Shown here one piece after another: positions 8,541-27,310 of a stretch of DNA of 64,000 nt (its first letter is position 1; each line of letters begins with the position of its first letter). The position numbers were made by a program, and so were the translations under genes. The notes beneath the pieces were generated by a model that saw only the letters and a program-made list of their open reading frames with translations, did not search any database and was not told the origin of the DNA. The DNA is from a virus (taxonomy: Duplodnaviria; Caudoviricetes), in IMG/VR virus record IMGVR_UViG_3300037067_018912, positions 256,001 through 320,000 of that record; one strand, written 5' to 3'.

Positions 8541-8582
8541 TGTAACTTTTATTTGTTAGTCTCGTATTTATTCGTACATTTG
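8541..8582 (+). promoter_or_regulatory. stacked promoters (ECF-type TGTAAC-N16-CGTA, GTATTTAT, Bacteroidota -7 TACATTTG)
   Basis: TGTAAC 8541, CGTA 8563, TACATTTG 8575. Confidence 0.7.
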
Positions 8583-8619
8583 CATCACGATTTTTGATAA
8601 ACTAAGTAAAAACAATATA

Positions 8620-8712
8620 ATGTTTGCATTCGGAACATATTATTACACCAAGAAATCTTATAAAAAGCAATTTATAGGAATCGGGAATAATATGTCCACA
8701 TGCGAAAGATAA
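8620..8712 (+). CDS. Tyr/Lys-rich leader peptide MFAFGTYYYTKKSYKKQFIGIGNNMSTCER (attenuator 1)
   Basis: 30-aa ORF between promoter and terminator; TAT TAT TAC ACC AAG AAA TCT TAT AAA AAG; upstream of Lys/Tyr tRNAs. Confidence 0.85.
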   Translation: MFAFGTYYYTKKSYKKQFIGIGNNMSTCER

Positions 8713-8737
8713 GCAATGATCTTTGCATTATGCACTG

Positions 8738-8767
8738 AAAACCCGGTTCGAAAGACCGGGTTTTTTT
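8738..8767 (+). terminator. intrinsic terminator of attenuator 1
   Basis: AAAACCCGGT-TCGAAAG-ACCGGGTTTTTTT; 5' arm can pair with GAATCGGG at 8678-8685. Confidence 0.9.
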
Positions 8768-8777
8768 GTTTTATGTT

Positions 8778-8849
8778 GATCTCGTAGCAAAGTTGGTTTA
8801 GCCTCGGACTTTTAATCCGAAGACGTGGGTTCGAGTCCCACCGGGATCA
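8778..8849 (+). tRNA. tRNA-Lys(TTT)
   Basis: TCGGA-CT TTT AA-TCCGA cloverleaf. Confidence 0.92.
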
Positions 8850-8919
8850 CAGCGATGGAGACATTTGGAACTTTTGTAGAACAGCCGCACAAATGCGTGG
8901 AAGCGTAAAAGTTCAATAA

Positions 8920-8998
8920 GGAAGTGTTGGGTGCTGGAATACCCAAGAGTCTGTAAAACTCCCGCTTCGGCATGTAGGTTCGAGTCCTACCACTTCCA
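8920..8998 (+). tRNA. tRNA-Tyr(GTA)
   Basis: GAGT-CT GTA AA-ACTC, variable arm, GGAAGTG/CACTTCC acceptor. Confidence 0.9.
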
Positions 8999-9073
8999 CT
9001 AACTGAAACCGTGTGAACCGGAGTTTCTGTTAACCCGTTCAATTAGAACGGGAAGAGTTTAAAAGGTTCATTT

Positions 9074-9157
9074 GTATCCGTAGCAAAGAGGCTATGCACC
9101 AGACTTTTAATCTGGGGACAGTATTGTCCTACGTGGGTTCGAATCCCACCGGGTACA
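9074..9157 (+). tRNA. tRNA-Lys(TTT) with long variable arm
   Basis: CCAGA-CT TTT AA-TCTGG then GGACA-GTAT-TGTCC arm. Confidence 0.88.
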
Positions 9158-9222
9158 CTGATAAAACTTAACGTGGTCGGAAGTTTATTATTCCGAAAGG
9201 CAACTGTTTCAAGATCACAAAT

Positions 9223-9304
9223 GCAGTCGTGGCAGAATGGCCATGCTCCTGACTCTTAATCAGGGTACGAAAGTACGATGGGGGTTCGAATCCCTTCGGC
9301 TGCA
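9223..9304 (+). tRNA. tRNA-Lys(CTT) with long variable arm
   Basis: CCTGA-CT CTT AA-TCAGG then GTAC-GAAA-GTAC arm. Confidence 0.88.
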
Positions 9305-9310
9305 CAAAAT

Positions 9311-9382
9311 GTCTTCGTGGCTCAACGGTAGAGTAACTGACTCTTAATCAGTGGGTTGTGGGTTCGAATCCCACCGGGGACA
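9311..9382 (+). tRNA. tRNA-Lys(CTT)
   Basis: ACTGA-CT CTT AA-TCAGT canonical cloverleaf. Confidence 0.93.
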
Positions 9383-9388
9383 CAAAAT

Positions 9389-9502
9389 GGGAGTGTGGTC
9401 GAGCGGTAGACGCAGGCTGAATTGGTACACTGTTTGGGTTTACAACCTTAACAAACAGAGGAAGCCTGATAAGTACGCAGGTTCGAATCCTGCCACCCTC
9501 CA
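9389..9502 (+). ncRNA. tRNA-like RNA with expanded anticodon arm
   Basis: D and T arms intact; CAGGCT/AGCCTG stem encloses ~44 nt including a CTGTTTG/CAAACAG hairpin. Confidence 0.7.
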
Positions 9503-9507
9503 CAAAA

Positions 9508-9753
9508 ATGATGAGTATGGAAACTTTAAAACAAATCGTAAGCGGAACATTGGCCAAAATGAGCCATATGTGTAACGGAAAAGTGTATTACACGATCGAT
9601 ACACAGGAACATTCGTATCAACTTGAAATTGATTGCCTGGACAAGGAATGGAAGGATGTTTATATCCTCCCGAAGTATAAGGCGATCACTCTGATGCGTT
9701 GGATCAGAAAAGGCATTGAGAAGGACAACGGCACGTTCATAATGTTGAAATAA
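9508..9753 (+). CDS. hypothetical protein
   Basis: 81-aa ORF between tRNAs. Confidence 0.7.
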   Translation: MMSMETLKQIVSGTLAKMSHMCNGKVYYTIDTQEHSYQLEIDCLDKEWKDVYILPKYKAITLMRWIRKGIEKDNGTFIMLK

Positions 9754-9759
9754 TGTGTT

Positions 9760-9848
9760 GGGAGTGCGGTAACGGTGGTGGTGTTGCAATTGACTGTAAA
9801 TCAATTCCCATAGGGTAAACATTGGGGGTTCGAATCCCTCCACTCTCA
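9760..9848 (+). tRNA. tRNA-Tyr(GTA)
   Basis: ATTGA-CT GTA AA-TCAAT, long variable arm. Confidence 0.9.
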
Positions 9849-9851
9849 CAC

Positions 9852-9881
9852 AAAACCCGGTTCGAAAGACCGGGTTTTTTT
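9852..9881 (+). terminator. terminator closing the Lys/Tyr array (same sequence as 8738-8767)
   Basis: AAAACCCGGTTCGAAAGACCGGGTTTTTTT. Confidence 0.9.
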
Positions 9882-14016: not shown

Positions 14017-16278
14017 ATGAACAAACATTTTGTGAAACTTGATGAAAACTATTTTCTTACAACCCAGGAAGTCAATAGTAATGTGACCGTAGAAGTCACA
14101 AAAAAAACGAACCACATTTTTGTGGTCGATGTTAGCGGATCAATGTCCTGGGAACTCCCCAAAATCAGAACTCAACTCAAGAACAAACTTTCTAACCTAA
14201 TGAAAGAAGGCGATACGATTTCGATCGTGTGGTTCTCCGGCAGGGATCAAAGCGGCATCTTGAAAGAAGAGGTTGAGGTCAAATCCCTCACAACTCTTAG
14301 CAGCCTAAACGATGCCATTGACAAATGGCTTCACCCGGTCGGCATGACCGCATTTCTCAAACCCTTACAACTTGTCAAGGAATTAACTGGAAGGATCAGC
14401 AAGAACAGACCGGACAGCGTGTTCAGCATGATCTTTCTTACCGACGGCTATAATAACGACTGTCCTTGGACGGAAGTAATTAAAGCCGTTAAGGATTTGG
14501 AAGTGGACATCGCTTCCTCAACATTTGTTGAATACGGCTATTACGCCGATACTCAAAAAATCACCCAAATGGCTGCCATATTGGGTGGTGAAAAAATCTC
14601 CTGCGATGGTTTCGATGATTTCGAACCCCTTTTCGACCGCAAGATTTCCCAATCCGCAAAAGGTGGGAAGAAAACCTTGGTCGATGTCGTTGACAAATAC
14701 CTGTATGATTTCGCATTCTCCGTTTCAGACGGTGGCGTAATCCTGTACAGTATCGTTGACAACAAAATCATGGTTGGTTCGGATGTAAAGGAAATCCATT
14801 TTTTCTCACCGAAAGAAGTTGGTGTCGATGCAGGAACTAATGCAACCGATACTGCACTTTATGCAGGTATCTACGTGCTTGCAGACAAACTTCTCAATGA
14901 TGATGCTGAGAAATTGTTCTATGCATTGGGTGATAACCATTATTACAGAATGTTATCCAACGCTTTCGGCAAACAGAAATTGAATGCATTTAAAACTGCA
15001 ATCAAGGAATGTATCGCCGATGTATCGAAAAGATTTCCTGATGGTGGAAAAGCAAAAATTCAAAAAGTGGATGAAAACGCTTACTGCCTGATGAATTTGA
15101 TTAGTGACTTGGGAGAAACAGAAAATTGCCTGTTCTATCCCAATCATTCAGACTTCAAATACAACCGCATTGGTAGGAAGATGGTAGCCTCTGCAAGCGT
15201 CCTGACGGAAACCGAAAAGAAACAACTCTCCGAAGCCAAGAACGTTGACGAAGCAGCCAAACTTCTGAAAGAATTTGAGGAAAAGAAAGTTGAAGTAAAA
15301 TTTGTTGCCCTCGATAAGAATAAGGGATATGCTCTTACTGATCTTGTATGGAATGAAGAACGTGCAAACCTGTCTGTCCGCATCTGTATTACCGGGGAAG
15401 CAATCTTGCCGGAAAACAAGTTCAAAATCGACAAGGTTGCCACTTACAAATACAATACTTTCACCTTAATAAAGGACGGTATTGTAAACGTTGAAAAACT
15501 CCCGGTAAGTTATTCCAGAGAATTGGCAGAATTGTTGACCAACAAAGGTGTTGAATATGATGATTTGGAAGCAACTTCCGATTCAAACAGAACAATCGTC
15601 ATTTACCTCAACAGTCTGCCCATTGTCAACAAACGTATGGTGAAGGAGTTATCTGCCAACGAACTTGCAAAACAGGAATGGGCATTGATCAGACTGCAGG
15701 GTGACAAGAAAGTATACGATTACTACCGCAAGGCTTTATTCCCCAAGGAAAGCAAGTCGTTCATCGAATTGTACAGCCAAGAAGCCGCCGATTGGTTGAA
15801 GGAGGTTGGCGTCACTGATTATAACGGTTTTGCGCCGAAAGTGACAGCCGAGGAATCCACGGACTTCTACATGTCTGTCAATCTGATAACCAAGATCAAA
15901 GGTCTCTCGTCCTTACCGAAAGTTGAGGATGTGGTAGCCAAGATCAAGTCAGGCAAAGAATTGAAATTGAGTGAATGGGTGATGGCCGATGCAATAACCA
16001 AATATACTGCGCAACTCGACAGTGACATCTACAAAACACTTGGCGAGGAGCAGCAGAAGGAAATGTTGAAAACCTACCTGATCACCAAATCGACCATCCT
16101 GAATAAACAAAGAAGGAAAGCGTTGCAGGAGATCGCAGAGATCAAGTTCGCTCTGATCCTTTCGAAGAAATGGTTCACAGAATTCAAGAGTTTCGATGAA
16201 AACAAACTCAACCTGAAACTCGATGACCAGGATTTGGAATTCACCTTTGATTTATGTGAAAAGGAAGTGAAAATATAA
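14017..16278 (+). CDS. large VWA-domain protein
   Basis: VVDVSGSMS MIDAS, FLTDGY; ECF-type promoter at 13947; terminator at ~16300-16332. Confidence 0.85.
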   Translation: MNKHFVKLDENYFLTTQEVNSNVTVEVTKKTNHIFVVDVSGSMSWELPKIRTQLKNKLSNLMKEGDTISIVWFSGRDQSGILKEEVEVKSLTTLSSLNDAIDKWLHPVGMTAFLKPLQLVKELTGRISKNRPDSVFSMIFLTDGYNNDCPWTEVIKAVKDLEVDIASSTFVEYGYYADTQKITQMAAILGGEKISCDGFDDFEPLFDRKISQSAKGGKKTLVDVVDKYLYDFAFSVSDGGVILYSIVDNKIMVGSDVKEIHFFSPKEVGVDAGTNATDTALYAGIYVLADKLLNDDAEKLFYALGDNHYYRMLSNAFGKQKLNAFKTAIKECIADVSKRFPDGGKAKIQKVDENAYCLMNLISDLGETENCLFYPNHSDFKYNRIGRKMVASASVLTETEKKQLSEAKNVDEAAKLLKEFEEKKVEVKFVALDKNKGYALTDLVWNEERANLSVRICITGEAILPENKFKIDKVATYKYNTFTLIKDGIVNVEKLPVSYSRELAELLTNKGVEYDDLEATSDSNRTIVIYLNSLPIVNKRMVKELSANELAKQEWALIRLQGDKKVYDYYRKALFPKESKSFIELYSQEAADWLKEVGVTDYNGFAPKVTAEESTDFYMSVNLITKIKGLSSLPKVEDVVAKIKSGKELKLSEWVMADAITKYTAQLDSDIYKTLGEEQQKEMLKTYLITKSTILNKQRRKALQEIAEIKFALILSKKWFTEFKSFDENKLNLKLDDQDLEFTFDLCEKEVKI

Positions 16279-16363
16279 TTCACTGACGTTCAATATACTA
16301 AAACCCCGAATAAAAAAATTCGGGGTTTTTTTAAAAATATATTGAAAAATTTTTGCAAATTAG

Positions 16364-16394
16364 TGTAACTGTTTTATCTTTGCAACGTATTTAA
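16364..16394 (+). promoter_or_regulatory. stacked promoters (ECF-type, Bacteroidota -7 TATCTTTG, GTATTTA)
   Basis: TGTAAC 16364, TATCTTTG 16376, CGTATTTA 16386. Confidence 0.7.
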
Positions 16395-16436
16395 GAGAAA
16401 CGATATTTTTCGTAAAATAATAACTTTAAATTTTCA

Positions 16437-16562
16437 ATGAAAACTTTAGCCACATATAGGCCAACGTCCGGATCGACAGAAAGTCGCAACGGGAATGCTA
16501 TATCCTGCTCATTTATTAATGACGGCAGAGGCATATACGGCATCGGGTTATTGTTTTCGTGA
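16437..16562 (+). CDS. codon-sampling leader peptide MKTLATYRPTSGSTESRNGNAISCSFINDGRGIYGIGLLFS (attenuator 2)
   Basis: 41-aa ORF; 29 of 41 residues are T/R/S/G/N/I/C/F, the specificities of the downstream tRNAs. Confidence 0.85.
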   Translation: MKTLATYRPTSGSTESRNGNAISCSFINDGRGIYGIGLLFS

Positions 16563-16589
16563 GAAAAAAAGGACAGTTAAAACTTAACG

Positions 16590-16619
16590 AAACCCGGTGT
16601 CAAAAGCACCGGGTTTTTT
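16590..16619 (+). terminator. intrinsic terminator of attenuator 2
   Basis: AAACCCGGTGT-CAAAA-GCACCGGGTTTTTT; 5' arm can pair with GGCATCGGGTT at 16539-16549. Confidence 0.9.
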
Positions 16620-16662
16620 GTTTTAGGGTTGTTGTGTATAGTTTTTTGGGTTCTTTTCATAC

Positions 16663-16733
16663 GTCGGGATAGTATAGTGGTAGTACGCTTGTGTGGTATT
16701 CAAGTGACACCAGTTCGAGTCTGGTTCTCGGCT
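16663..16733 (+). tRNA. tRNA-Thr(GGT), atypical anticodon arm
   Basis: CTTG-T-GT GGT AT-T-CAAG; acceptor and T arms intact. Confidence 0.7.
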
Positions 16734-16817
16734 CAACGAATATCAGTTGTGAAACTCATATTCATCGATTATAAGGTCACAACCTTATGATTGAGTTCTT
16801 TGACATGCTGGAATTTT

Positions 16818-16898
16818 GAAGGGTTGCCTGAGTGGTTGAAAGGGACAGTCTGCAAAACTGTTAGGAAACTCACGTGGGTTCAAATCCCACACCCTTCT
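16818..16898 (+). tRNA. tRNA-Cys(GCA), long variable region
   Basis: ACAGT-CT GCA AA-ACTGT, U73. Confidence 0.9.
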
Positions 16899-16960
16899 CA
16901 AAAGCGATATTTTGCGAAAAGCATTGTTTTTCGGTACTTATTGCAAAATATCGCTCTTAT

Positions 16961-17032
16961 GGACTGGTGGCTCAGTGGTAGAGCGTCTGGCTGTTAACCA
17001 GAGGGTCGGGGGTTCAAATCCCTCTCAGTCCG
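16961..17032 (+). tRNA. tRNA-Asn(GTT)
   Basis: TCTGG-CT GTT AA-CCAGA. Confidence 0.93.
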
Positions 17033-17037
17033 CAAAT

Positions 17038-17111
17038 TGTCTCGTAGTTCAGTTGGTTAGAGCACATCCCTGATAAGGATGAAGTCGTGAGTTCAACTCT
17101 CACCGAGACAA
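17038..17111 (+). tRNA. tRNA-Ile(GAT)
   Basis: CATCC-CT GAT AA-GGATG. Confidence 0.93.
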
Positions 17112-17187
17112 CAAACCGCCCCCAGCGGTATATAAAATTATGAATAAGCAATGCGCATTTAGTGCTGTTCATATACTGGGGACGCAT

Positions 17188-17262
17188 TGGGTGGTAGTTC
17201 AGTCCGGTTAGAACGCATCTCTGATAAGGATGAAGTCGAGGGTTCAAATCCCCCCCTCCCAA
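17188..17262 (+). tRNA. tRNA-Ile(GAT), second copy
   Basis: CATCT-CT GAT AA-GGATG. Confidence 0.88.
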
Positions 17263-17383
17263 CAAAAGGTTCGTAGTCCGAAAGCCTAACCAGCCGACGG
17301 GTGAAGTTTCCTTGGCGAAATTGATGTAAACAAGCACCTGTGGTGGGATTGCGATGTGCTGATAAAGTGACCGAAAACTTAAT

Positions 17384-17470
17384 GGAAGGTTGGCAGAGCG
17401 GTCGATTGCGCCTGTCTTGAAAACAGGTGTACATGCCAATGTACCGGGGGTTCGAATCCCTCACCTTCCG
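17384..17470 (+). tRNA. tRNA-Ser(TGA)
   Basis: CCTGT-CT TGA AA-ACAGG, long variable arm, G73. Confidence 0.93.
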
Positions 17471-17553
17471 CACTTGGCGTAACCACGGCACGAACCGTGA
17501 CTTCGGATTTGATCACCGATGAAGCATTTAATGTTGATGCAGTCATGATATTT

Positions 17554-17638
17554 GGAGAGTTGGCAGAATGGTCATTGCAACAGTCCCGAAAACTGTCGTC
17601 GTGAAAGCGGCGTGTAGGTTCGAATCCTATGCTCTCCG
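17554..17638 (+). tRNA. tRNA-Ser(CGA)
   Basis: ACAGT-CC CGA AA-ACTGT (C33), long variable arm. Confidence 0.88.
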
Positions 17639-17645
17639 CAAAATC

Positions 17646-17717
17646 GAGGAAGTAGCATTACATGGGTAGCGCAGGGGCGAAAACCCTGAGAGGTGGGTTC
17701 GATTCCTGCATTCCTCA
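17646..17717 (+). tRNA. atypical tRNA or tRNA-like RNA (GAA in loop GCGAAAA)
   Basis: CAGGG/CCCTG stem and T arm present; weak D arm, no U33. Confidence 0.55.
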
Positions 17718-17726
17718 CTCAAACAT

Positions 17727-17815
17727 GGAAGGTTGACAGAGCGGTCTATTGTAACAGCCTGGAAAGTTGTCGTCGTGAAAGCGACGCAGGGGTTCGAATC
17801 CCTTACCTTCCGCCA
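17727..17815 (+). tRNA. tRNA-Ser(GGA)
   Basis: ACAGC-CT GGA AA-GTTGT, encoded CCA. Confidence 0.92.
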
Positions 17816-17819
17816 AAAT

Positions 17820-17895
17820 TGACTTTAATATTGGAACAAAAAGGATGTAGTGTCATGACACATTCTTCGGGGAGGTTCAAATCCTTCAGAGTCAG
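17820..17895 (+). ncRNA. tRNA-like RNA without canonical D/anticodon arms
   Basis: TGACTTT/AGAGTCA acceptor, GGAGG-TTCAAAT-CCTTC T arm, AAGGATGT/ACATTCTT central stem. Confidence 0.55.
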
Positions 17896-18148
17896 CAAAC
17901 GGGTTGGACTGCAATCCGACCTGTTCTCACAGGATGCTGTTACAATCGTATCATTGCAGTGATGTGGTTGATGCAAAATGTGCGAGTCCCTGTATGCATA
18001 AGATGCTGTCCTAATGTTCAGTAGCAATTCCTCTTTCGCACACATGGTTGGCAACATGAAATGTGTGAGTACGGTGTTGTTCAGAGACGTTTATGTTGGT
18101 TGCAATGCCTCCGGGTTCGTGGTATAAGGCCACAACAGGGACAAATAT

Positions 18149-18220
18149 GGAGTGGTAACTCAGCGGTAGAGTGCCTCCCTGAAGAGGAGGTGGTCGGGGG
18201 TTCAAATCCCTCTCACTCCA
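18149..18220 (+). tRNA. tRNA-Phe(GAA)
   Basis: CCTCC-CT GAA GA-GGAGG. Confidence 0.92.
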
Positions 18221-18556
18221 CAAAAAAGGCAGGTGGACGGATCAAATCCTGTTCCCGCAGGACAAGATTGCCGCCTTGGTGCGGACGTTCACAACGGGAC
18301 TGCCTTATACAGGTCGGGCAACCAGCGGGGTTGTTCGGGTAACTTCCTCACAAGGAATCCTGTAAAAACATTGATAAACGGGGATACCCCGCTGCGAAAG
18401 CAGTGCCCCGCCCATAAAACAGGCTTCACGAAGACCTCCAACTTTAGGTTGGTGGGCGGTCAAACGCCCGGTGAAAGGTTCGTATATCAACAGGCTCACG
18501 GAGTCCTCCAACTTAAAATTGGTGAATCTCAATAATTCAGTAAAAAGTCCGTAAAT

Positions 18557-18628
18557 GCGAGTATAGCACAACGGCCAGTGCGTCAGATTTCCAATCTGAG
18601 GATGTCAGTTCGATCCTGATTACTCGCT
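18557..18628 (+). tRNA. tRNA-Gly(TCC)
   Basis: TCAGA-TT TCC AA-TCTGA, U73. Confidence 0.92.
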
Positions 18629-18635
18629 CAAACAT

Positions 18636-18715
18636 TCACGAATAACTCAGCGGTTAGAGTGCCTCGGCGGGCTTCGGCTACGAGGGAGTCGGGGGTTCAA
18701 ATCCCTCTTCGTGTA
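18636..18715 (+). ncRNA. tRNA-like RNA with 14-nt anticodon loop
   Basis: CCTCG-GCGGGCTTCGGCTA-CGAGG; D and T arms canonical. Confidence 0.7.
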
Positions 18716-18767
18716 CAAAAGGTCTGAGGGAGTCCTTTGAAGGTATAAACAACCTGTCCCTCTCCAC

Positions 18768-18840
18768 GGTGGTGTGGCGCAATGGTCAGCGCAGGACTCT
18801 TATAAGGTCAAGGTTGGGGGTTCAAGTCCCTTCACCACTA
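18768..18840 (+). tRNA. tRNA-Ile(TAT)
   Basis: GACT-CT TAT AA-GGTC. Confidence 0.88.
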
Positions 18841-18847
18841 CAAAAAT

Positions 18848-18932
18848 GTTTGGTTAGTCAAGTGGCCGACGACAGCAGGCTGTTAACCTGCCGAGAGAAA
18901 TCCCATCGTAGGTTCGAATCCTACATCAAACG
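18848..18932 (+). tRNA. tRNA-Asn(GTT) with long variable region
   Basis: GCAGG-CT GTT AA-CCTGC plus 16-nt variable region. Confidence 0.88.
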
Positions 18933-18978
18933 CAAATCATTTCCAAACCCTTATAGTATTTATGTGAAAATTAATGAT

Positions 18979-19230
18979 ATGAAGAAGGTTTGGGAAAGTC
19001 TCAAGTGGTTTTTCAGCAGATGGATGCTCGTGTTGGTTGTGCTTATTGTATTGGGGATAATCGCAACGTTCATAATAAAATTCACAACACATACAGAAGA
19101 ACCATACAAAATTCCATTGTTCATCATCGGTGGTTGGGGGGTATTTGTCGTTCTCTTCACTTGGGTGAGAGAGATTTATTGGAAAATTGCAGGTAAAGGT
19201 GATTATGCTAAAAAGGACGAAAAGAAATGA
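18979..19230 (+). CDS. small two-TM membrane protein
   Basis: Two hydrophobic stretches; GTATTTAT 23 nt upstream. Confidence 0.75.
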   Translation: MKKVWESLKWFFSRWMLVLVVLIVLGIIATFIIKFTTHTEEPYKIPLFIIGGWGVFVVLFTWVREIYWKIAGKGDYAKKDEKK

Positions 19231-19604
19231 ATATAATTTCGATTCTATTATTCTTTTTCGCCGGGGTTTGCAATGCCTGCATGGATGTATTAAGAACGAG
19301 ATATAACACTTCTACATTTCGTTTTTGGCGGAATCAGAATTGGGTGAACCCGGCATTATCATGGCCGAATAAATGGAAGCCAAAGTCGAAATTCGGTGAT
19401 CTTATTATGTCGACAGTCCTTGTATGGGTAACTGATTTTTGGCATATGTGTAAAATGTTGATGATTCTTTGTTTTACAATGGGAGCGATTTTTTATCAAC
19501 CAATTTTTGACTTTTCAAAATTTTGGTTGGATTTGTTGATTTTATATTTTATATTCACAGGAACATTTGAACTGTTTTTCAGCAAAGTGCTAATAAAGAA
19601 ATGA
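19227..19604 (+). CDS. membrane protein
   Basis: Hydrophobic, TDFWHMCK motif, overlaps previous stop. Confidence 0.75.
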   Translation: MNIISILLFFFAGVCNACMDVLRTRYNTSTFRFWRNQNWVNPALSWPNKWKPKSKFGDLIMSTVLVWVTDFWHMCKMLMILCFTMGAIFYQPIFDFSKFWLDLLILYFIFTGTFELFFSKVLIKK

Positions 19605-19632
19605 CAATCATGTAAAATAATAAAGGGACATA

Positions 19633-20544
19633 TTGATGATCAAGATTTTCAAAACTTTCGGCGGGTGCGAAAGCGCAACCAAATTGGAAAAGGGATGTTG
19701 GATAGATGTGATTCAACCTACACAAGACGAGATTGAAGAAATAATAAACGGTTTTAACCTGCCCCCCGATAGTATACAAGACATTCTTGACGCCGATGAA
19801 ATGCCCCGTCTTGAAATCGACGACACTTACACCTTGATCATCATGCGTATTCCGGTGGAGAATTCACAAAACGGAATACCTTATTACACAATACCTCTTG
19901 GAATTTTTGTGACGGAAGATTTCACAATCACGATTTGTAATCAGGACAATGAAATCATTCAACCGAAACAATTGAGTAGCACGGCGGACACATACAATTT
20001 TATTTTGAAATTTTTTGTCAGATCAGCGAGTGTTTTTTTGAAATACCTTAAACAAATCAATCAACAGACAAGTCAAATCGAAAAGGATTTGGAAGAATCA
20101 ATTAAGAACAGTGAATTGAAAAAACTGTTGAAGATGGAAAAATGCCTTGTGTACTTCATTACTGCAATAAAATCGAATGAAATCGTCCTTCACCGTTTAA
20201 AAAACTCGAAAAGGATCACGGGTGAAATCAATGAAGACCTTTATGAGGACGCATTGATTGAAAACAGGCAGGCACTTGAAATGGCGCAGATATATTCAGA
20301 CATCTTGAGCGGGATGATGGACGCATTTGCCTCGATCATTTCGAACAACCTAAATGTGATAATGAAGAAATTGACGCTCATTTCAATAATACTCATGATC
20401 CCGACCCTTATCGCAAGTATATTCGGAATGAACATTCCGAATTTCATGGAAGGTTCAAATTGGGCGTTGCCTTCAATAATAATATTATCCCTATCACTGT
20501 CTTTGATCAGTGTGAAACTGATGAGAAACAAGCAGTGGTTTTAA
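19633..20544 (+). CDS. corA: CorA-family Mg2+ transporter
   Basis: WIDVIQPT, LDADEMPRLE, NNLNVIMKKLT, FGMN signature, two C-terminal TMs. Confidence 0.92.
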   Translation: MMIKIFKTFGGCESATKLEKGCWIDVIQPTQDEIEEIINGFNLPPDSIQDILDADEMPRLEIDDTYTLIIMRIPVENSQNGIPYYTIPLGIFVTEDFTITICNQDNEIIQPKQLSSTADTYNFILKFFVRSASVFLKYLKQINQQTSQIEKDLEESIKNSELKKLLKMEKCLVYFITAIKSNEIVLHRLKNSKRITGEINEDLYEDALIENRQALEMAQIYSDILSGMMDAFASIISNNLNVIMKKLTLISIILMIPTLIASIFGMNIPNFMEGSNWALPSIIILSLSLSLISVKLMRNKQWF

Positions 20545-20548
20545 AAAT

Positions 20549-20632
20549 GCCGATATCGCATAGTTGGTCAATTGCGCCGCACTTGTAATGCGGAGAAGAA
20601 ATTCTTCGTGGGTTCGAATCCCGCTATCGGCT
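20549..20632 (+). tRNA. tRNA-Thr(TGT) with long variable arm
   Basis: CCGCA-CT TGT AA-TGCGG, AGAA-GAAA-TTCT arm. Confidence 0.9.
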
Positions 20633-20734
20633 CAAAAGTAGGTGAAAAAGCGAAAGGATAACCTTCGGTATCAGGAAAACCTTTCACGGGTGCGGGAATA
20701 GACCGACTTGAACCGCACCCCGCTTATTTAAGTT

Positions 20735-20806
20735 GCCGATATAGCACAGCGGTAGTGCACCTGTTTCGTAAACAGGGGGTCGCAGGTTCAAATCCCGCTA
20801 TCGGCT
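20735..20806 (+). tRNA. tRNA-Thr(CGT)
   Basis: CCTGT-TT CGT AA-ACAGG. Confidence 0.92.
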
Positions 20807-20846
20807 CAAATCCTTGCTATTCTCCCTAATTTTTCCTAATTTTAAT

Positions 20847-20918
20847 GCCTCTATAGTTCAAGGGACAGAACAGAAGTTTTCTAAACTTCCGATCATGGTT
20901 CGAGTCCATGTGGGGGTA
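20847..20918 (+). tRNA. tRNA-Arg(TCT)
   Basis: GAAGT-TT TCT AA-ACTTC, A20 in D loop. Confidence 0.9.
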
Positions 20919-20932
20919 CTAAATAAATTAAA

Positions 20933-21166
20933 ATGTATACAGTTATCTGCCCGAAATGCAAGAAGTCCTTCACTGTGTCGGGTGACACCGAATACGTTCT
21001 TTGTTGCGATGAGGTGATATTCATCCCATCTAATGGTCCTGAAATGAAAGGCATCACTTTCCAATGCATACAGGAGGGGTTAATGAGGGATGGACGCAAC
21101 GTCGACCGGATATTTCTTGGTGATCCAAATGAAAGTATTGCACCCGATCCATACGAAGGATTGTGA
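20933..21166 (+). CDS. small Cys-motif protein
   Basis: CPKC...LCC. Confidence 0.6.
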   Translation: MYTVICPKCKKSFTVSGDTEYVLCCDEVIFIPSNGPEMKGITFQCIQEGLMRDGRNVDRIFLGDPNESIAPDPYEGL

Positions 21167-21329
21167 TGCGTTTTACGGTAAAGAAAATGAACGGCAAGGT
21201 CGCCTTTATGAATGAAAACAAAAGGTGGGTCAAACTCAATGGTTACGCTTTCCTTGATGAATACGGCCATTGCATCATAATTGTTTATGGTGAAGCGAGA
21301 ATGAAAGATGTTGAAAAGTATTTAAGTAT

Positions 21330-21401
21330 GCCCCTGTAGTTCAATGGACAGAACGGAAGTTTCCTAAACTTTAAATTCGAGTTCGATTCTCGGTGGGGGT
21401 A
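21330..21401 (+). tRNA. tRNA-Arg(CCT)
   Basis: GAAGT-TT CCT AA-ACTTT. Confidence 0.9.
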
Positions 21402-21493
21402 CAAAAACAGACAAATATTATCCGTCAATATGCAAAAACGTATAATAACCGGATAATAAATATCCTTATATGTAAAAGCATATAATAACATTC

Positions 21494-21565
21494 GCTCCCG
21501 TAGTTCAACGGATAGAACGCAAGTTTCCGGAACTTGTGATGCAAGTTCGATTCTTGTCGGGAGTA
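21494..21565 (+). tRNA. tRNA-Arg(CCG)
   Basis: CAAGT-TT CCG GA-ACTTG. Confidence 0.92.
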
Positions 21566-21592
21566 CAAGGTATTTATGTGAAAAGTAAATCA

Positions 21593-22069
21593 ATGAACAA
21601 CACCAAATTGAATGAAGAGATTCTGACCGCATACCGGGGTGGTGGGGAAATGCCGAGTCAAAGAAGGCTTTGGTACTTTACAACAAACGTCAAATATGCA
21701 AATTGGTTCAAGAGATACGCTTCCCTTGGAAAAGGCAAATTGTTTAAAGCGGATATAAGCACGGACAACCTTCTCGATTTGAGGTTTGTGACAAAACAGT
21801 TGAATTATCTTGATCTTCATTACATTTTAAAAAACAATGGAATAAGACCACCAAAATTCGTAATTGAAAACATTGAAGCGGGTTATGGTGGATACAAAGG
21901 TAATCTTTGGGAGTTCTTGAAAGAAGACAATGAATTGTGGGACAACATCTCAGAGAAATACGACGGAGTTATTTTCACCGAGACGAATCCGGAAGCGAGA
22001 CATACGGGCAAGGCGGAGACTATAATAATTGATATGATCAAGCACCCGGTCGAATATGAAGAAGTATAA
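21593..22069 (+). CDS. putative ADP-ribosyltransferase-fold protein
   Basis: AYRGG...WYFTTNVKYA...YDGVIF pattern of ART-like phage domains; LNEEI N-terminus. Confidence 0.55.
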   Translation: MNNTKLNEEILTAYRGGGEMPSQRRLWYFTTNVKYANWFKRYASLGKGKLFKADISTDNLLDLRFVTKQLNYLDLHYILKNNGIRPPKFVIENIEAGYGGYKGNLWEFLKEDNELWDNISEKYDGVIFTETNPEARHTGKAETIIIDMIKHPVEYEEV

Positions 22070-22072
22070 TAT

Positions 22073-22146
22073 GCACCTGTAGTGTAACTGGACAACACGT
22101 CTGACTACGGATCAGGAGATTGAGGGTTCGAATCCTTTCAGGTGTA
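22073..22146 (+). tRNA. tRNA-Arg(ACG)
   Basis: TCTGA-CT ACG GA-TCAGG. Confidence 0.92.
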
Positions 22147-22256
22147 CTAAAACCATAAGCCTATAGTCCAATATTCGAGAGTAACTTCTCAGAAGGGCAC
22201 GGTGTACAACGGAATTCAGGTATGAAATCCTGATGGGAACAACTTATGGTTTAATT

Positions 22257-22329
22257 GCAGAAATGGCGCAATCGGTAGCGCATGGCCTTCCCAAGGCCAG
22301 GGTTGCGGGTTCGAGACCCGTTTTCTGCT
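22257..22329 (+). tRNA. tRNA-Gly(CCC)
   Basis: TGGCC-TT CCC AA-GGCCA. Confidence 0.92.
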
Positions 22330-22337
22330 CAAATTTT

Positions 22338-22412
22338 GCGGGAATAGCACAGTGGTAGTGCGTTTGCTTGCCAAGCAAAAGGTCGTGAGTTCAAGCCTCA
22401 TTTCCCGCTCCA
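22338..22412 (+). tRNA. tRNA-Gly(GCC)
   Basis: TTTGC-TT GCC AA-GCAAA, encoded CCA. Confidence 0.93.
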
Positions 22413-22413
22413 T

Positions 22414-22486
22414 GCGAGATTAGCACAGTTGGTTAGTGTATCGGCTTGCCATGCCGGGAACGTGGGTTCGAATCCCATATCTTGCT
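22414..22486 (+). tRNA. tRNA-Gly(GCC), second copy
   Basis: TCGGC-TT GCC AT-GCCGG. Confidence 0.88.
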
Positions 22487-22501
22487 CAAAATTATGTTGT
22501 T

Positions 22502-23215
22502 ATGTCATTTACTTTTACACTTAAATCAACAGGAGAAGAGATAACACTCCCAACACCAAGCGGTGGTCCGGTTGAAATTGACTCTTTACCTTCCGAACCA
22601 TTGGAAATGAAGTACAGGACGATCGTGGTATCTGACCTGCACATTTTCAGAGATGATTCGAAATACAAAGAGTGTTTTAAATTTTTGATATACAATCCCT
22701 CGGAGAAGATCATCCTGAACGGTGATATCTTCGATTTCCTGCACCTGCTCAAGCATTGGTCGAATTATAAAAAGTACAAATACGTCATGCGAGGGTTCAG
22801 GATATTCATGAAGGAGAGGGGGACAAAGGTGATCTTCCTCGTCGGCAATCACGACTATCATTATTACCTGTTGAAGATCATACAACCCTTCCTGGGGATC
22901 AAAATTAGAAAATTTTATACTTTCGAATCAATTGCCGGGAGGATTCATGCCACACACGGAGATTGGATACCCTACGTGTTAAAGATCAAAAGGTTCTTCA
23001 ATAAAACAATCAAGATATCCGGCAACGAGGATGATGATTACGTCCTCTACGGATTATTAAAGAAATACAATGTCCTCATTTGCGGACACACACATGAACC
23101 GCTGTACAGGATTTACAACAACCTCCTCTACATCAACACAGGCGATTGGGTGAGCGATAACATGGCCGCCGTGGAAGAATTCGACGGGAGTTGGCATTTG
23201 ATACAAACACAATAA
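22502..23215 (+). CDS. calcineurin-like metallophosphoesterase (LpxH-like)
   Basis: SDLH, NGDIFD, GNHD, THGD, CGHTH, NTGDW. Confidence 0.88.
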   Translation: MSFTFTLKSTGEEITLPTPSGGPVEIDSLPSEPLEMKYRTIVVSDLHIFRDDSKYKECFKFLIYNPSEKIILNGDIFDFLHLLKHWSNYKKYKYVMRGFRIFMKERGTKVIFLVGNHDYHYYLLKIIQPFLGIKIRKFYTFESIAGRIHATHGDWIPYVLKIKRFFNKTIKISGNEDDDYVLYGLLKKYNVLICGHTHEPLYRIYNNLLYINTGDWVSDNMAAVEEFDGSWHLIQTQ

Positions 23216-23222
23216 GAACGGT

Positions 23223-23537
23223 ATGAAAGGGATCATAAAATACAATACCAGGTTTTACAAAAAATCTGATAAACCCCTCAAAGAGGGTGATTTAGTTAAA
23301 CTTGAATGTAAAAGAGGTAGCGATTATTTCAAATACAATGGAATATATACCGTCAACAAATGGAACGAAATATTAGTTCCACTTAAAGAAGAAAACGGTA
23401 AAAAATATAATCTTTGTATTAAACTTGGATACAACGTTTTTAAACACGAGGAATACTCCAAATTGGTTGAGGTTCAAAGAAGGAAGTCCCTTCCAAAACC
23501 AGTGAAAGAAGAACAAATGTGTGGTTATACAATATGA
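23223..23537 (+). CDS. hypothetical protein
   Basis: 104-aa ORF. Confidence 0.65.
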   Translation: MKGIIKYNTRFYKKSDKPLKEGDLVKLECKRGSDYFKYNGIYTVNKWNEILVPLKEENGKKYNLCIKLGYNVFKHEEYSKLVEVQRRKSLPKPVKEEQMCGYTI

Positions 23538-23554
23538 TCTACCCCACCACACAA

Positions 23555-23813
23555 AAAACATAGCACAGAGGATTCATCGCTTGTTCAATAAAATCGTCTG
23601 TTCACTGTACGTGAACATTCAAAAATATTGAACAAGAGGAAGTTCGGGACACCACTGCTGAAGGCGGGAGATTCAACGCTAATCGGGATCGCCAATACCG
23701 CCGAGGGTGCAAGCCAAACAGTTTGAGACGGTGAGCAGGTCTTTGAGAACGGGTTGGTGCGTAGATAAATGATGATTAACAACAGAATCCCGGCTACGCT
23801 CATGCTATGTTTT
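23555..23813 (+). ncRNA. rnpB: RNase P RNA, short form with reduced specificity domain
   Basis: P1 AAACATAGCA/TGCTATGTTT; P3 CTTGTTCAATA/TATTGAACAAG; GAGGAAGTTCGGGA and AACAGAATCCCGGCTA (P4); TAGATAAATGA. Confidence 0.85.
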
Positions 23814-23969
23814 AAAATTTTTGACGAATGAATCGAAATCAGTGACGAATGGATGAGAATCATTAATGAAATTAATGTGTTTTAGTCATAATTTAGTCTT
23901 GAAACTCTTATCATTGTAACAAGTCCGGTTTTTTTTCGTATCTTTGTCAGGTAATCAAAACAATCTTGC

Positions 23970-24281
23970 ATGACAACATTATTGAAAAAGGATATCAAAC
24001 GGGAGACGTTCTCCGTAACAGACTTCAAAGGCAACGTAATGATCGTTACCCTAAAAGCGGGTGACATGATCGAGTTCAGAGCGAAAGGTAAGAGGATCAA
24101 GTACGAAGTACCGCTTGCCGCCTGTTTCAACTTGGCAATGATCTATTCCGCACACGAGCGATATAAGGAAAGGATTAAACGCTACGAGGATGGTCGCAAG
24201 GAAGGCCGGAAAATGAAAAGGCCAAGATTGATGCCAAGGATTTTCAATGAAAGATTGTATCAGGCATTGAAATTAATTTAA
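23970..24281 (+). CDS. hypothetical basic protein
   Basis: 103-aa ORF behind ECF-type promoter at 23915. Confidence 0.75.
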   Translation: MTTLLKKDIKRETFSVTDFKGNVMIVTLKAGDMIEFRAKGKRIKYEVPLAACFNLAMIYSAHERYKERIKRYEDGRKEGRKMKRPRLMPRIFNERLYQALKLI

Positions 24282-24439
24282 TATATTTGTGTTATGACAT
24301 CGGAGAGTAAGAGAAAGAAGGAGAAAAACAACACGCATAGTGCCAACGGGTTTGCGTTGAAAGAGCATGAATGTAAAATGAAAAGAGCATTGTATTTCAA
24401 TTCATCAAAAAGACAAAAACTCAAAAAAATCGACACCGA

Positions 24440-24808
24440 ATGAACCAAGAATTATGGGAAATATTAGTCCCCTCTTTCAGTAACGGTGGTGAAAAATTTC
24501 CGCTCGAACACCATAAGAAATGGGATGCCTTTGTCAAGAAGATCGCAAAAGGCGTGACGATCATGAAAACTGCCAAAGGTGAATGGGTTAGTCCGACCGG
24601 ACAGGTCTATATGGACAGAATGATCCCATGCCGAATCATTTGTAATGAAAGTCAAATGGATAAAATTATTGATTTCACTATTGAGCATTACGACCAAGAG
24701 GCTGTTCTTGCGTACAAGATTTCGGACAACGTGATCCTGCGCCACAGGAATGACAAGAGCATTAACGAGGACGTCCAAAGACTTTGGAATCAAAGAAACT
24801 ACAGATGA
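24440..24808 (+). CDS. hypothetical phage protein
   Basis: 122-aa ORF. Confidence 0.75.
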   Translation: MNQELWEILVPSFSNGGEKFPLEHHKKWDAFVKKIAKGVTIMKTAKGEWVSPTGQVYMDRMIPCRIICNESQMDKIIDFTIEHYDQEAVLAYKISDNVILRHRNDKSINEDVQRLWNQRNYR

Positions 24809-25002
24809 TACCAATTAAGGATATATTACCTTGTCCGTTTTGCGGAGCACAGGTGAAAGATCATCCGAATCCGATAACCAGTAAGGAATTTTTTATGGTA
24901 AGGCACATGAATGGTTGTTATTTCTTAAAAAATAATTCATCGGATTTCACCTTATTATTGAAAAACGATTATTATATAAAAAGTTGGAATAAAAGAATAT
25001 AA
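24805..25002 (+). CDS. zinc-ribbon protein (Lar-like N-terminus)
   Basis: LPCPFCG. Confidence 0.55.
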   Translation: MIPIKDILPCPFCGAQVKDHPNPITSKEFFMVRHMNGCYFLKNNSSDFTLLLKNDYYIKSWNKRI

Positions 25003-25004
25003 TC

Positions 25005-25196
25005 ATGGGAATGTTCGGTGAAATACATGCAGGAATGAATGCTGAACAATTGGAAAAAATCCTTTTGGAGGCAATAAAGGAAAATGACACCATCAAAGCA
25101 TTTGCAAAAAAACATCTGTATCAGTGGTATCTGTCCGAATGCAGTGAAGCGTTCCGTGAATCGAACCATGAAATAAAAGATGAATTTGAAGATTAA
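25005..25196 (+). CDS. hypothetical protein
   Basis: 63-aa ORF in operon. Confidence 0.6.
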   Translation: MGMFGEIHAGMNAEQLEKILLEAIKENDTIKAFAKKHLYQWYLSECSEAFRESNHEIKDEFED

Positions 25197-25413
25197 AAAC
25201 ATGGAAATTGAAACAGTAAACGATTTGGCAGAACAGATAGCCGACTGGATTGGCATCTATGGCGGCTGTAAATCAGATGGGGAAAGTGGTTGCACATACG
25301 ATAAATTCAAAAATCCTTGTTGCTGCCGCACAGGTTTTATCACCGCTATGGAGGAAAGGATAAGAGAAGCGGTGGAGAATGAAAAAAAACTCGAACAAGC
25401 GGGTTTGAAATAA
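25180..25413 (+). CDS. Cys-rich hypothetical protein
   Basis: 77-aa ORF, PCCCR. Confidence 0.6.
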   Translation: MNLKIKNMEIETVNDLAEQIADWIGIYGGCKSDGESGCTYDKFKNPCCCRTGFITAMEERIREAVENEKKLEQAGLK

Positions 25414-25418
25414 AATAA

Positions 25419-25507
25419 GGAAGGGTGGGTGAGTGGCTGAAACCACCTGTTTGCTAAACAGACGTGCGGGGCAACCTGCACCGGGGGTTCAAATCCCCCT
25501 CCTTCCG
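25419..25507 (+). tRNA. tRNA-Ser(GCT)
   Basis: CTGT-TT GCT AA-ACAG, long variable arm. Confidence 0.92.
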
Positions 25508-25547
25508 CAAAAAATACTCCCACATTTTGTTGAGTATTTATACGTAA

Positions 25548-25748
25548 ATGGATTTCATGTGGGAGTATGAAAGAAAGGACTTCAAATTCAGATGGTATGC
25601 TGATCTTGTTATGTTTTTGAATGAGAAAGGCAAGGAGGGTTGGCAAGTGATTTGGTACGAAGAGGAAAGACCCGGAAAATTTGATGTCGAGATTACGGCG
25701 AAGATATTATTTAAACGGTTAAAGGATGAAACTACTCGAACAGGTTAA
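25548..25748 (+). CDS. DUF4177-like small protein
   Basis: WEYE...LNEKGKEGWQVI...LFKR pattern. Confidence 0.6.
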   Translation: MDFMWEYERKDFKFRWYADLVMFLNEKGKEGWQVIWYEEERPGKFDVEITAKILFKRLKDETTRTG

Positions 25749-26142
25749 AATGGTGTTCGTCAAGCATGAATGGAGACCCCTCGAAATTCCAGCAGGTCAC
25801 AAGAACCTTTACAGGTATCTTGACGAATTCCCCGAAGAACGAAAAAGCGATAAATACTCCTCTCCCAAGGACGACAGGTATTTCATAAACAAATACAGAA
25901 AGCACATCCCGCCAGGATGGTACGGATTCTCCCTCGGCAACCCAATAATTCCAGTATGGTGCGACATCATTGAAGAAGTGATTGAACTTTGCATTACAAA
26001 CGACCCGGACTTTGAAATTCATCAAATCAAAGTTAAGATGGGTCGGATATGTTTTTACACCGACAGTAACATTATTGAAGACACGGACGAGATCGACATG
26101 TTCTTTGAAAGAACTTTGTCCGATCCGGCATTGGTTTATTGA
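25726..26142 (+). CDS. hypothetical phage protein
   Basis: 138-aa ORF, QIKVKMGRICFY. Confidence 0.7.
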   Translation: MKLLEQVKMVFVKHEWRPLEIPAGHKNLYRYLDEFPEERKSDKYSSPKDDRYFINKYRKHIPPGWYGFSLGNPIIPVWCDIIEEVIELCITNDPDFEIHQIKVKMGRICFYTDSNIIEDTDEIDMFFERTLSDPALVY

Positions 26143-26170
26143 AACTTTTTTCATCCATACACGTATTATA

Positions 26171-26443
26171 ATGCCGAAGGACTTTGAATTATTGAAACGG
26201 ACGTACCCGGTGTCGGAGTTTGACAGATTTTGTGATGGTTATGATTACATCATGGCCAACAGTACGCCGGAGGAACGGAAGGAGTGGGGTATTAAGGAAG
26301 ACGAATTGGAACGGGTGATCAAAGAAGGAGAGAAGTACATCTACCAAGTGGCCACGGAAGGTGAGGAATTCAAGACGATGTGCCTGTGTTTTAAGAATTA
26401 TGAGATCATCCGGAAGAAGATATTTAAACTCGAAGACGACTGA
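26171..26443 (+). CDS. hypothetical protein
   Basis: ATG 5 nt after TGAAAC-N16-CGTA (26140-26165), so nearly leaderless. Confidence 0.7.
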   Translation: MPKDFELLKRTYPVSEFDRFCDGYDYIMANSTPEERKEWGIKEDELERVIKEGEKYIYQVATEGEEFKTMCLCFKNYEIIRKKIFKLEDD

Positions 26444-26458
26444 TAACACTATAATACT

Positions 26459-26719
26459 ATGAAAGATTTTCCAAGATTTTGGTTCGAAGGTAATTTATAC
26501 TTTGGTTGGGTAAATAACCTTGATGAATTAAATGTTGTGTTCGAATACTATAAAGAAGGTCATATGACCAAAGACGAAGTTCTCGACAAAGCGGTAAGTC
26601 TTGAAGATGAGGACAAGAGTGGAAAACACACGGAGTTTGGTTTAAGAATCGAACATCGGGGCAGCATGACCTTACGCCAATTCTTGGAAGAGAAAGGGGT
26701 TGACTATGGAAAAGAATAA
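26459..26719 (+). CDS. hypothetical protein
   Basis: 86-aa ORF. Confidence 0.65.
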   Translation: MKDFPRFWFEGNLYFGWVNNLDELNVVFEYYKEGHMTKDEVLDKAVSLEDEDKSGKHTEFGLRIEHRGSMTLRQFLEEKGVDYGKE

Positions 26720-26903
26720 ACGGATGACGACAAGACAACTGTTTAAGGAATTCCTTGATTTTGCTTGCGAAATCGGCGGTGTCGTTTTGTACATTGGGGT
26801 GATCTTATGTGCCATTTCCTACAAGGCGTATGGGATTATCCCGGTTTGCGTGGCAGGTATTGCCTGCACGCTGTACACAACGCTTCGTAAGGGGTGTAAC
26901 TAA
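26706..26903 (+). CDS. small membrane protein
   Basis: Two hydrophobic segments. Confidence 0.6.
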   Translation: MEKNKRMTTRQLFKEFLDFACEIGGVVLYIGVILCAISYKAYGIIPVCVAGIACTLYTTLRKGCN

Positions 26904-26906
26904 GAC

Positions 26907-26979
26907 GGTTCTGTAACTTAATCGGCTAAAGTAGCAGTCTCTAAAACTGTGTTTGCGGGTTCGAACCCCGCCAGGATCA
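26907..26979 (+). tRNA. amber suppressor tRNA (anticodon CTA)
   Basis: GCAGT-CT CTA AA-ACTGT; GGTTCTG/CAGGATC acceptor; GCGGG-TTCGAAC-CCCGC T arm. Confidence 0.9.
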
Positions 26980-26995
26980 CCTATATATTTTTACA

Positions 26996-27310
26996 ATGAG
27001 TAGAACGAATAAAGACCTAAAAAGTCATAAAACAGGGATTGGCAGATATGGAAGAAAACCTCAAAGAAAACTCACTCCCTTTATTCATGATGCAAATAAA
27101 ATCGTAGGCAAAAATGAAGTTTTATCGTGCTTGCCTGACAACGATATTAAACAAGATGATTTCGAAAAGGGATATCATTGGCACAATGCAAAAGCAGTAC
27201 GTGCGATAAGAAAGAAAATCCGTGCCGAAAGGGGTTATGAAAAATCCAAAGCAAGGGGAAGAATTAAACAATTTGACAAAAAAATTTGTGAAACTCAAAA
27301 ATTTGATTAA
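26996..27310 (+). CDS. basic K/R-rich hypothetical protein
   Basis: MSRTNKD..., 104 aa. Confidence 0.7.
   Translation: MSRTNKDLKSHKTGIGRYGRKPQRKLTPFIHDANKIVGKNEVLSCLPDNDIKQDDFEKGYHWHNAKAVRAIRKKIRAERGYEKSKARGRIKQFDKKICETQKFD

Follow-up and report, generated by a model that had tools for sequence, protein, structure and literature searches.

A block of 21 tRNA genes in a large phage genome is directly preceded by a cassette (window 16352-16624) comprising a promoter motif, a 41-codon leader open reading frame, an antiterminator segment and an intrinsic terminator. The window is the whole stretch of DNA analyzed here, 64,000 nt in length, which corresponds to G000:C1:256001-320000 of the phage record. 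The best explanation, with a probability of about 0.8, is ribosome-mediated, codon-group-specific transcription attenuation of the tRNA block, in which the modelled switch would act as an OR-type sensor of tRNA shortage. The cassette is real and conserved, and is probably functional.

The phage record is complete (357,275 bp with direct terminal repeats) and T4-like, with genes for a Gp23 capsid protein of the T4 type and for a terminase. It contains 61 tRNA/tmRNA genes, 58 of which lie in four amino-acid-sorted blocks (A to D, the block above being D) plus a tail. The host appears to belong to Bacteroidota, since the promoters have the form TTTG-N19-TAnnTTTG, the Bacteroidota sigma-ABfr consensus (PMC7366714), the translation starts are A-rich and free of a Shine-Dalgarno sequence with A at -3, a base that favours initiation in Flavobacterium (PMC6847099), the capsid is closest, among cultured phages, to that of a Flavobacterium phage (41.5%) and, as a weak indication, there are CorA clusters. 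The best DNA matches for the phage were landfill and groundwater metagenomes; the region 16200-16889 was identical between two assemblies, either of which may be the source of this DNA. A search with the leader profile against 401 genomes of Bacteroidota, the phylum of a Proteiniphilum MAG, gave nothing credible (best score 19.9 bits versus 63 for the phage), and a pattern search of genome contigs found the cassette in none among the matches listed. The cultured Flavobacterium phage immuto, whose capsid is 41.5% identical, has four tRNAs and, as judged by eye, no evident leader-terminator cassette.

The promoter motif of the block D cassette is of the Bacteroidota sigma-ABfr type and lies at 16352-16382 (+), with TTTG at -33 and TATCTTTG at -7. 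A scan for sigma-70 promoters gave hits at chance level. The leader ORF (16437-16562, +) runs from the ATG at 16437 to the TGA at 16560-16562 and encodes the peptide MKTLATYRPTSGSTESRNGNAISCSFINDGRGIYGIGLLFS. Its codons 35-38 contain the antiterminator segment (16539-16549, +), for which an 11-nt pairing had been claimed in the preliminary description; the pairing was reproduced between GGCATCGGGTT (16539-16549) and AACCCGGTGTC (16591-16601), with 11 bp, two G:U pairs and -19 kcal/mol. The putative attenuator is an intrinsic terminator hairpin with a U tract (16590-16624, +), in which the stem is followed by T6-G-T4. A strong inverted repeat at 16301-16333, right 3' of a VWA gene, has similar hairpins in the related loci L002, L007, L008 and L010, and probably serves as a bidirectional terminator shielding the attenuated promoter.

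The leader had also been described as sampling nearly every codon class read by the downstream tRNAs. Every codon listed for it was present, and all the anticodons listed were found by ARAGORN among the 21 tRNAs at 16663-22487 plus tRNA-Ser(GCT) at 25419. A cognate codon was found for 18 of the 19 anticodon classes, and CCG (codon CGG) was indeed the sole gap. In the permutation test of codon coverage that had been proposed, synonymous shuffles of the same peptide covered 14.8 classes on average (P=0.010 for 18 classes), and random phage codons covered 10.1, with none of 100,000 draws reaching 18. When the shuffles were restricted to codons 2-31, a window taken from the folding model and not from codon counts, the mean was 13.7 and P=0.001. 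At the level of residues, 29 of 40 are amino acids of block D against a background of 44% (P=2e-4). Eight codons among codons 2-31 are off-target (Lys, Leu, two Ala, Tyr, Pro, Glu and Asp), most codon classes in the sensing window of leader D occur once or twice, and the last new class, AGA at codon 31, stands at the edge of the modelled window. The match of 18 out of 19 reflects the unusually complete tRNA set of this phage.

Block D (16663-22487, +) encodes 21 tRNAs for Thr, Cys, Asn, Ile, Ser, Phe, Gly and Arg, and is also interspersed with tRNA-like RNAs and some ORFs. Strong internal promoters, which the preliminary description had named as evidence against an attenuated array, were not encountered: a scan for TAnnTTTG detected no -7 element from 16383 to 23938, with the scope of host-type promoters, so that phage-specific promoters of other kinds would escape it. 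A search for hairpin-U terminators from 16625 to 27500 found none. Therefore, the 21 tRNA genes to 22487 lie without any other host-type promoter. Further -7 elements at 23939-23946 and at 24282 (+) could transcribe the distal part including tRNA-Ser(GCT) (25419-25508, +), which matches the AGT codon of the leader; this tRNA may be read through from leader D or be served by these elements. The genes downstream of leader D are tRNA genes, a CorA Mg transporter gene (19633-20544, inside block D), a metallophosphoesterase gene (22436-23215, inside or just behind the block) and small ORFs, with no genes for amino-acid biosynthesis or synthetases. CorA and the metallophosphoesterase would be co-induced with block D.

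Several RNAs in and around the blocks resemble tRNAs with altered anticodon arms. The one at 18636-18715 has normal D and T arms, but an extended stem carrying a CUUCGG hairpin takes the place of its anticodon loop; it scored 46 bits with the Rfam tRNA model, was missed by ARAGORN and is possibly a decoy or a repurposed tRNA. Others with long or degenerate anticodon arms occur in the attenuated blocks (9389-9501, 17646-17717 and 17817-17898), and a cluster of tRNA-like RNAs that lack normal anticodon loops is present at 37580-37730, 37840-37907, 38138-38336 and 38356-38436. In the window at 37539-38440, a Bacteroidota-type promoter is located ahead of this cluster, with no evident leader or terminator. 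In addition, tRNAs with CTA and TCA anticodons, which are possible amber and opal suppressors, were found at window 26907-26981 and G000:C1:159671-159745 (-); CTA tRNAs recur in the relatives L014, L015, L017, L024 and L181.

Conservation of the cassette was analyzed with the adjacent VWA gene as bait, which retrieved 27 viral loci at 58-78% identity; where block D lay downstream, the cassette was present in nearly all. A DNA pattern search added further loci and brought the set to 51 distinct D leaders, this one among them. The pattern itself imposed the fixation of CGY and GGR in 34 of the 51, and for these codons only the 18 leaders obtained via the neighbouring gene were counted. A lack of conservation of the ORF had been the other point named against the attenuator; the ORF, promoter, antiterminator and terminator were all kept in the 50 related leaders. 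Insertions and deletions in the 51 leaders were in frame only, the other two frames were closed in 51/51, a -7 promoter element was located 36-70 nt upstream of the leader in 51/51, and A occupied position -3 of the start in 38/51. On-target residues made up 88% of the predicted sensing window versus 62% of the tail, a core peptide motif SRNGNxIFCS was well conserved, and peptide conservation faded past the modelled window edge. The terminator was kept in the homologues, and the stop codon preceded it by 18-38 nt in 51/51, so a ribosome at the stop codon should not block the hairpin.

The antiterminator also paired better with the terminator arm of its own leader than with those of other leaders. 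Duplexes of an antiterminator with its own terminator arm had a mean of -15.6 kcal/mol versus -13.3 kcal/mol for swapped partners (P<5e-5, inflated since the sequences are related), and the difference held for the 17 leaders obtained via the neighbouring gene only (P=4.5e-4, again inflated by kinship). Shuffled antiterminator segments gave a mean of -7.3 kcal/mol, and the flanking columns of the duplex showed several pair types. In a sediment relative, among the differences listed, the leader carried a 3-nt in-frame insertion and mostly synonymous changes, and T16600C turned a G:U into a G-C pair in both the antiterminator and the terminator.

The switch was modelled by folding with a ribosome footprint of -12/+15 at a decision point where the terminator 3' arm is still in the polymerase. 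With the A site at codons 2-31 of this leader, the predicted antiterminator probability was about 0.9-1 when only RNA downstream of the ribosome was folded and 0.5-1 if the upstream RNA was allowed to refold, and it fell to about 0.2 by codons 32-35. The predicted sensing window of leader D therefore extends from codon 2 to about codons 31-32 (16440-16532, +). Over the 51 leaders, the modelled probability was 0.92-0.94 up to the conserved Gly-Arg codons and 0.94 at the conserved AGA, then 0.34 four codons past GGC and 0.01 at the stop codon; cassettes A-C were likewise predicted to switch off right after their own control codons. Equilibrium folding was tried as a test of switching and showed no switch for B-D, so that the co-transcriptional cut was required. 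Since the terminator of the full-length RNA was favoured at equilibrium at every ribosome position, control must be kinetic, and readthrough needs a trapped antiterminator. For ribosome-free nascent RNA, the model gave an antiterminator probability of 0.86 here and a mean of 0.91 over the leaders. Untranslated RNA is thus predicted to read through, and total translation failure would also open the block. This prediction is the opposite of super-attenuation in trp, in which untranslated RNA terminates.

Two hairpins were predicted inside the leader. H1 (CGAC/GTCG; 16474-16486, +) was paired in 99% of cells across the related leaders, without compensatory change, and H2, in which Phe/Ser-Cys codons pair with Gly-Arg codons (16503-16530, +), was paired in 98% of cells with one-sided changes only. 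Covariation in H1 and H2 across the related leaders, which showed no compensatory changes, was not above that of shuffles; therefore, the helices rest on conservation and one-sided changes. H1 is possibly a pause or spacer hairpin and H2 possibly an RNA polymerase pause hairpin, and together they could make the polymerase wait for a ribosome to load. Since the codons AGT, TCG/ACG, TTC-TGT and GGC-AGA fall in H1 or H2, their fixation can be explained by structure.

The preliminary description had further proposed a multi-input OR gate that resolves individual isoacceptors. The attenuator and the OR gate are supported by the 50 related leaders and by the lack of an internal -7 element or terminator before 23939. 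As for isoacceptors, the claim held in part: the codon choice is under selection, but the leaders do not track the anticodons of their own phages and have a single output. The number of codon classes in D leaders exceeds what their peptides call for (15.8 versus 14.0; 50 of 51 leaders, which are related sequences). Fifteen codon classes occurred in at least 43 of the 51 sensing windows; among them are both Ser boxes, both Arg boxes, ATA together with ATY, and GGA together with GGY. In the 18 pattern-free leaders, CGY and GGR never crossed class, though the third base varies, and ATA was present in 16; TCA was found in 46 of the 51 leaders. Some third positions that lie in no predicted helix are also fixed for class. 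The VWA gene next door behaves differently in these phages: 0 of 23 Gly columns were all GGR, ATA was fixed in 0 of 28 Ile columns and a single codon in 0 of 23 Ser columns. Synonymous codon class is thus under selection beyond the peptide, with partial confounding by the hairpins.

A comparison of leader codons with the phage's own anticodons in 15 near-complete arrays gave no significant class, with low power for invariant classes. tRNA-Arg(TCG) was present in 10 of these arrays and CGA in one leader, tRNA-Arg(CCT) was present in 11 with AGG in 4 of those, and the TCG codon was present in 14 leaders with tRNA-Ser(CGA) in 2 arrays. A close relative has ACA for ACG and GGA for GGG in its leader. 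It is more likely, then, that the leader covers the infected cell's main decoding classes and is no mirror of the phage's own list. Because the output is a single block, the gate could detect the loss of one isoacceptor but not which one. In nine relatives (L010, L016, L025, L092, L133, L143, L167, L168 and L181), Ile-TAT is replaced by a tRNA with a CAT anticodon, probably a lysidine-type tRNA-Ile2, and ATA is kept in the leader whether the relative has Ile-TAT or the CAT-anticodon tRNA.

All four tRNA blocks share the same head, namely a promoter, an ORF of 22-41 codons, a segment complementary to the terminator 5' arm and a terminator. Leader A (G000:C1:249120-249188, upstream of the window) belongs to block A (Pro, His and Gln), and leader B (G000:C1:253373-253465, also upstream of the window) to block B (Asp, Glu, Val, Leu, Ala and Trp). 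The distal end of block B (1755-4112, +) contains a tmRNA, Leu-TAA, Leu-CAA and Met, and is presumably co-transcribed with leader B. Cassette C (8552-8768, +) consists of a promoter, a 30-codon Tyr/Lys-rich leader (8620-8712), an ATCGGG antiterminator and a terminator, and is followed by block C (Lys and Tyr; 8778-9881, +), which is closed by its own terminator. The attenuator terminator (8739-8768) and the end terminator (9851-9881) of block C have an identical hairpin sequence. On-target residues numbered 9/21, 21/29 and 8/29 in leaders A, B and C, and the enrichment of each leader for the amino acids of its own block gave P values of 2.5e-5, 2e-5, 0.02 and 2e-4 for A to D. None of the off-diagonal pairings of leader and block among the four cassettes reached P<0.05. 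In 4, 6 and 14 relatives, respectively, leaders A, B and C were found again, each in front of its corresponding block. An internal ATG was present in 7/7 B leaders, and a tRNA-Met ends block B; together these would complete the 20 amino acids over the four cassettes. The phage tmRNA (1755-2120) lies within block B, a position conserved in L303 and L306-L314, and ribosome rescue by tmRNA may thus also be inducible through a sensor of this type.

In the proposed mechanism, we infer from the motif at 16352-16382 that host RNA polymerase starts there, and the conservation of the frame suggests that a ribosome then loads on leader D and translates it, presumably coupled to the polymerase. When every charged tRNA that it needs is present, the ribosome would pass codon ~33, cover 16539-16549 and halt 25 nt before the terminator, which would then fold and end transcription at about 16620. 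A ribosome waiting anywhere between codon 2 and about codons 31-32 would leave the antiterminator free to capture the emerging terminator 5' arm and, by computation, kinetic trapping of this structure would let the polymerase read into the block of 21 tRNA genes. Leader D would thus be an OR gate with one output, exerting negative feedback on tRNA supply, and the four cassettes would divide the 20 amino acids among four blocks. Because most classes occur once or twice, we infer that severe tRNA loss, through cleavage by host defence or decay during infection, is a likelier trigger than mild shortage. Such a trigger is consistent with the RtcB RNA ligase gene of the phage (G000:C1:348880-349941, -), with a CCA-adding/poly(A) polymerase head domain within a 1510-codon open frame (G000:C1:103924-104310, -) and with the counter-defence idea of PMC10264068. 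We give even odds to the more general proposal that a family of Bacteroidota jumbo phages monitors the whole code by four leaders, with D, the broadest of them, firing on the loss of even one major class. If it is true, a loss signal in D, e.g. the reader of AGA, ATA, GGR or AGY being cut by a host anticodon nuclease, would bring out replacement tRNAs, and the cassette would amount to a counter-defence that ribosome stalling switches on.

Other explanations were weighed against attenuation by codon group. The switch might be a general sensor of translation stress, opened by any slow or absent ribosome (antibiotic, toxin or host shut-off), with codon identity secondary and the fixed codons mostly serving the hairpins. 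The predicted antiterminator in ribosome-free nascent RNA, the fact that H1 and H2 account for the fixation of AGT, TTC-TGT and GGC-AGA, and the lack of a cross-phage match of leader codons to own anticodons are all compatible with such a sensor, and a precedent exists in the E. coli toiL uORF, which senses many ribosome antibiotics (PMC12121999). It is nevertheless unlikely: four leaders each spelled in the amino acids of their own block would be needless, changes in the hairpin loops always preserve the frame and mostly involve on-target residues, and the unpaired third positions (CGY, GGR, TCA) are class-fixed, unlike the columns of the VWA gene.

A sensor of amino-acid starvation only, comparable to a multivalent attenuator of a biosynthetic operon and responding to uncharged tRNA of the eight amino acids with synonymous codon choice irrelevant, would account for amino-acid enrichment being the strongest signal, for the ACG to ACA and GGG to GGA swaps of the close relative, and for CGA and AGG codons being mostly missing where the matching tRNAs are present. 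The retention of both Ser boxes, both Arg boxes, ATA/ATY and GGR/GGY in nearly all leaders argues against it, extra tRNA is no cure for a lack of amino acids, and we consider its chance to be very slight; it overlaps with codon-group attenuation, because stalling cannot distinguish the two causes. Finally, the leader could give a functional peptide or small RNA, with a merely leaky terminator and an incidental codon match. The well-conserved core motif and a terminator that always wins at equilibrium would fit, but conservation is at the codon level and goes no further than the footprint window, each antiterminator prefers its own terminator arm as a partner and the block match is repeated in four unrelated leaders, which makes this explanation very improbable.

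Among known systems, T-box riboswitches resemble the cassette in the control of a terminator and antiterminator by tRNA status; they bind uncharged tRNA directly via a specifier loop and need no ORF. An Rfam search found no T-box and no cis-regulatory family, only tRNA and tmRNA matches, and a Stem I with specifier loop and T-box bulge was not detected; the T-box identity was rejected. Multivalent attenuators of enterobacteria include thrL (Thr/Ile) and ilvL of ilvGMEDA (Ile/Leu/Val), and trpL, hisL, pheL and pheM of pheST are further attenuators of this kind. Like thrL, ilvL and trpL, the cassette has a promoter, a short control-codon ORF, an antiterminator overlapping the 3' part of the ORF and an intrinsic terminator and, like thrL and ilvL, a stalled ribosome is predicted to give readthrough. 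To our knowledge, classical leaders cover at most three amino acids, versus eight for leader D. Unlike thrL and ilvL, leader D is phage-encoded and controls tRNAs rather than enzymes or synthetases; it samples about 18 codon classes, mostly as single codons and not runs, it has no predicted strong 1:2 protector that would terminate untranslated RNA, and it is one of four parallel cassettes spanning the whole code. Since tRNA genes and not biosynthesis or synthetase genes lie downstream, the cassette is a variant of leader-peptide attenuation, as generally described (PMC4833913), and not a member of those operon families.

The trn operon of Anabaena PCC 7120, and with it the bacterial tRNA L-arrays, offers a further parallel in the form of a long supernumerary tRNA array that is induced by impaired translation (PMC8421152). 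It differs in being one array without leader-codon sorting, for which repression at promoter direct repeats has been proposed and a leader or attenuation is not mentioned (PMC8421152). The toiL uORF of E. coli is similar in that stalls at several positions of one uORF lead to one output; it works through translation attenuation and Rho, its inputs are antibiotics and its target is a toxin-antitoxin pair (PMC12121999). Why phages carry tRNA genes has been an open question for more than 50 years (PMC10264068). A counter-defence role for phage tRNAs, in which they offset the depletion of host tRNAs, has been discussed (PMC10264068, citing Yang 2021 and Azam 2023). It gives a likely purpose for leader D, namely to make up for tRNAs cleaved or lost in the host; that article describes no regulation of phage tRNA transcription. 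Block-wise sensing of slow decoding favours replacement of what the host loses over constitutive codon compensation, an idea that is testable with a 270-nt reporter, and the four leaders could report which tRNA groups are attacked by Bacteroidota defence systems. A literature search, with most subscription papers outside its reach, turned up no account of tRNA genes controlled by leader-peptide attenuation. In summary, the probable mechanism is a known one, ribosome-mediated attenuation, and the target, tRNA genes, is new; attenuation, familiar from enzyme genes in hosts, would thereby reach tRNA genes and phages.
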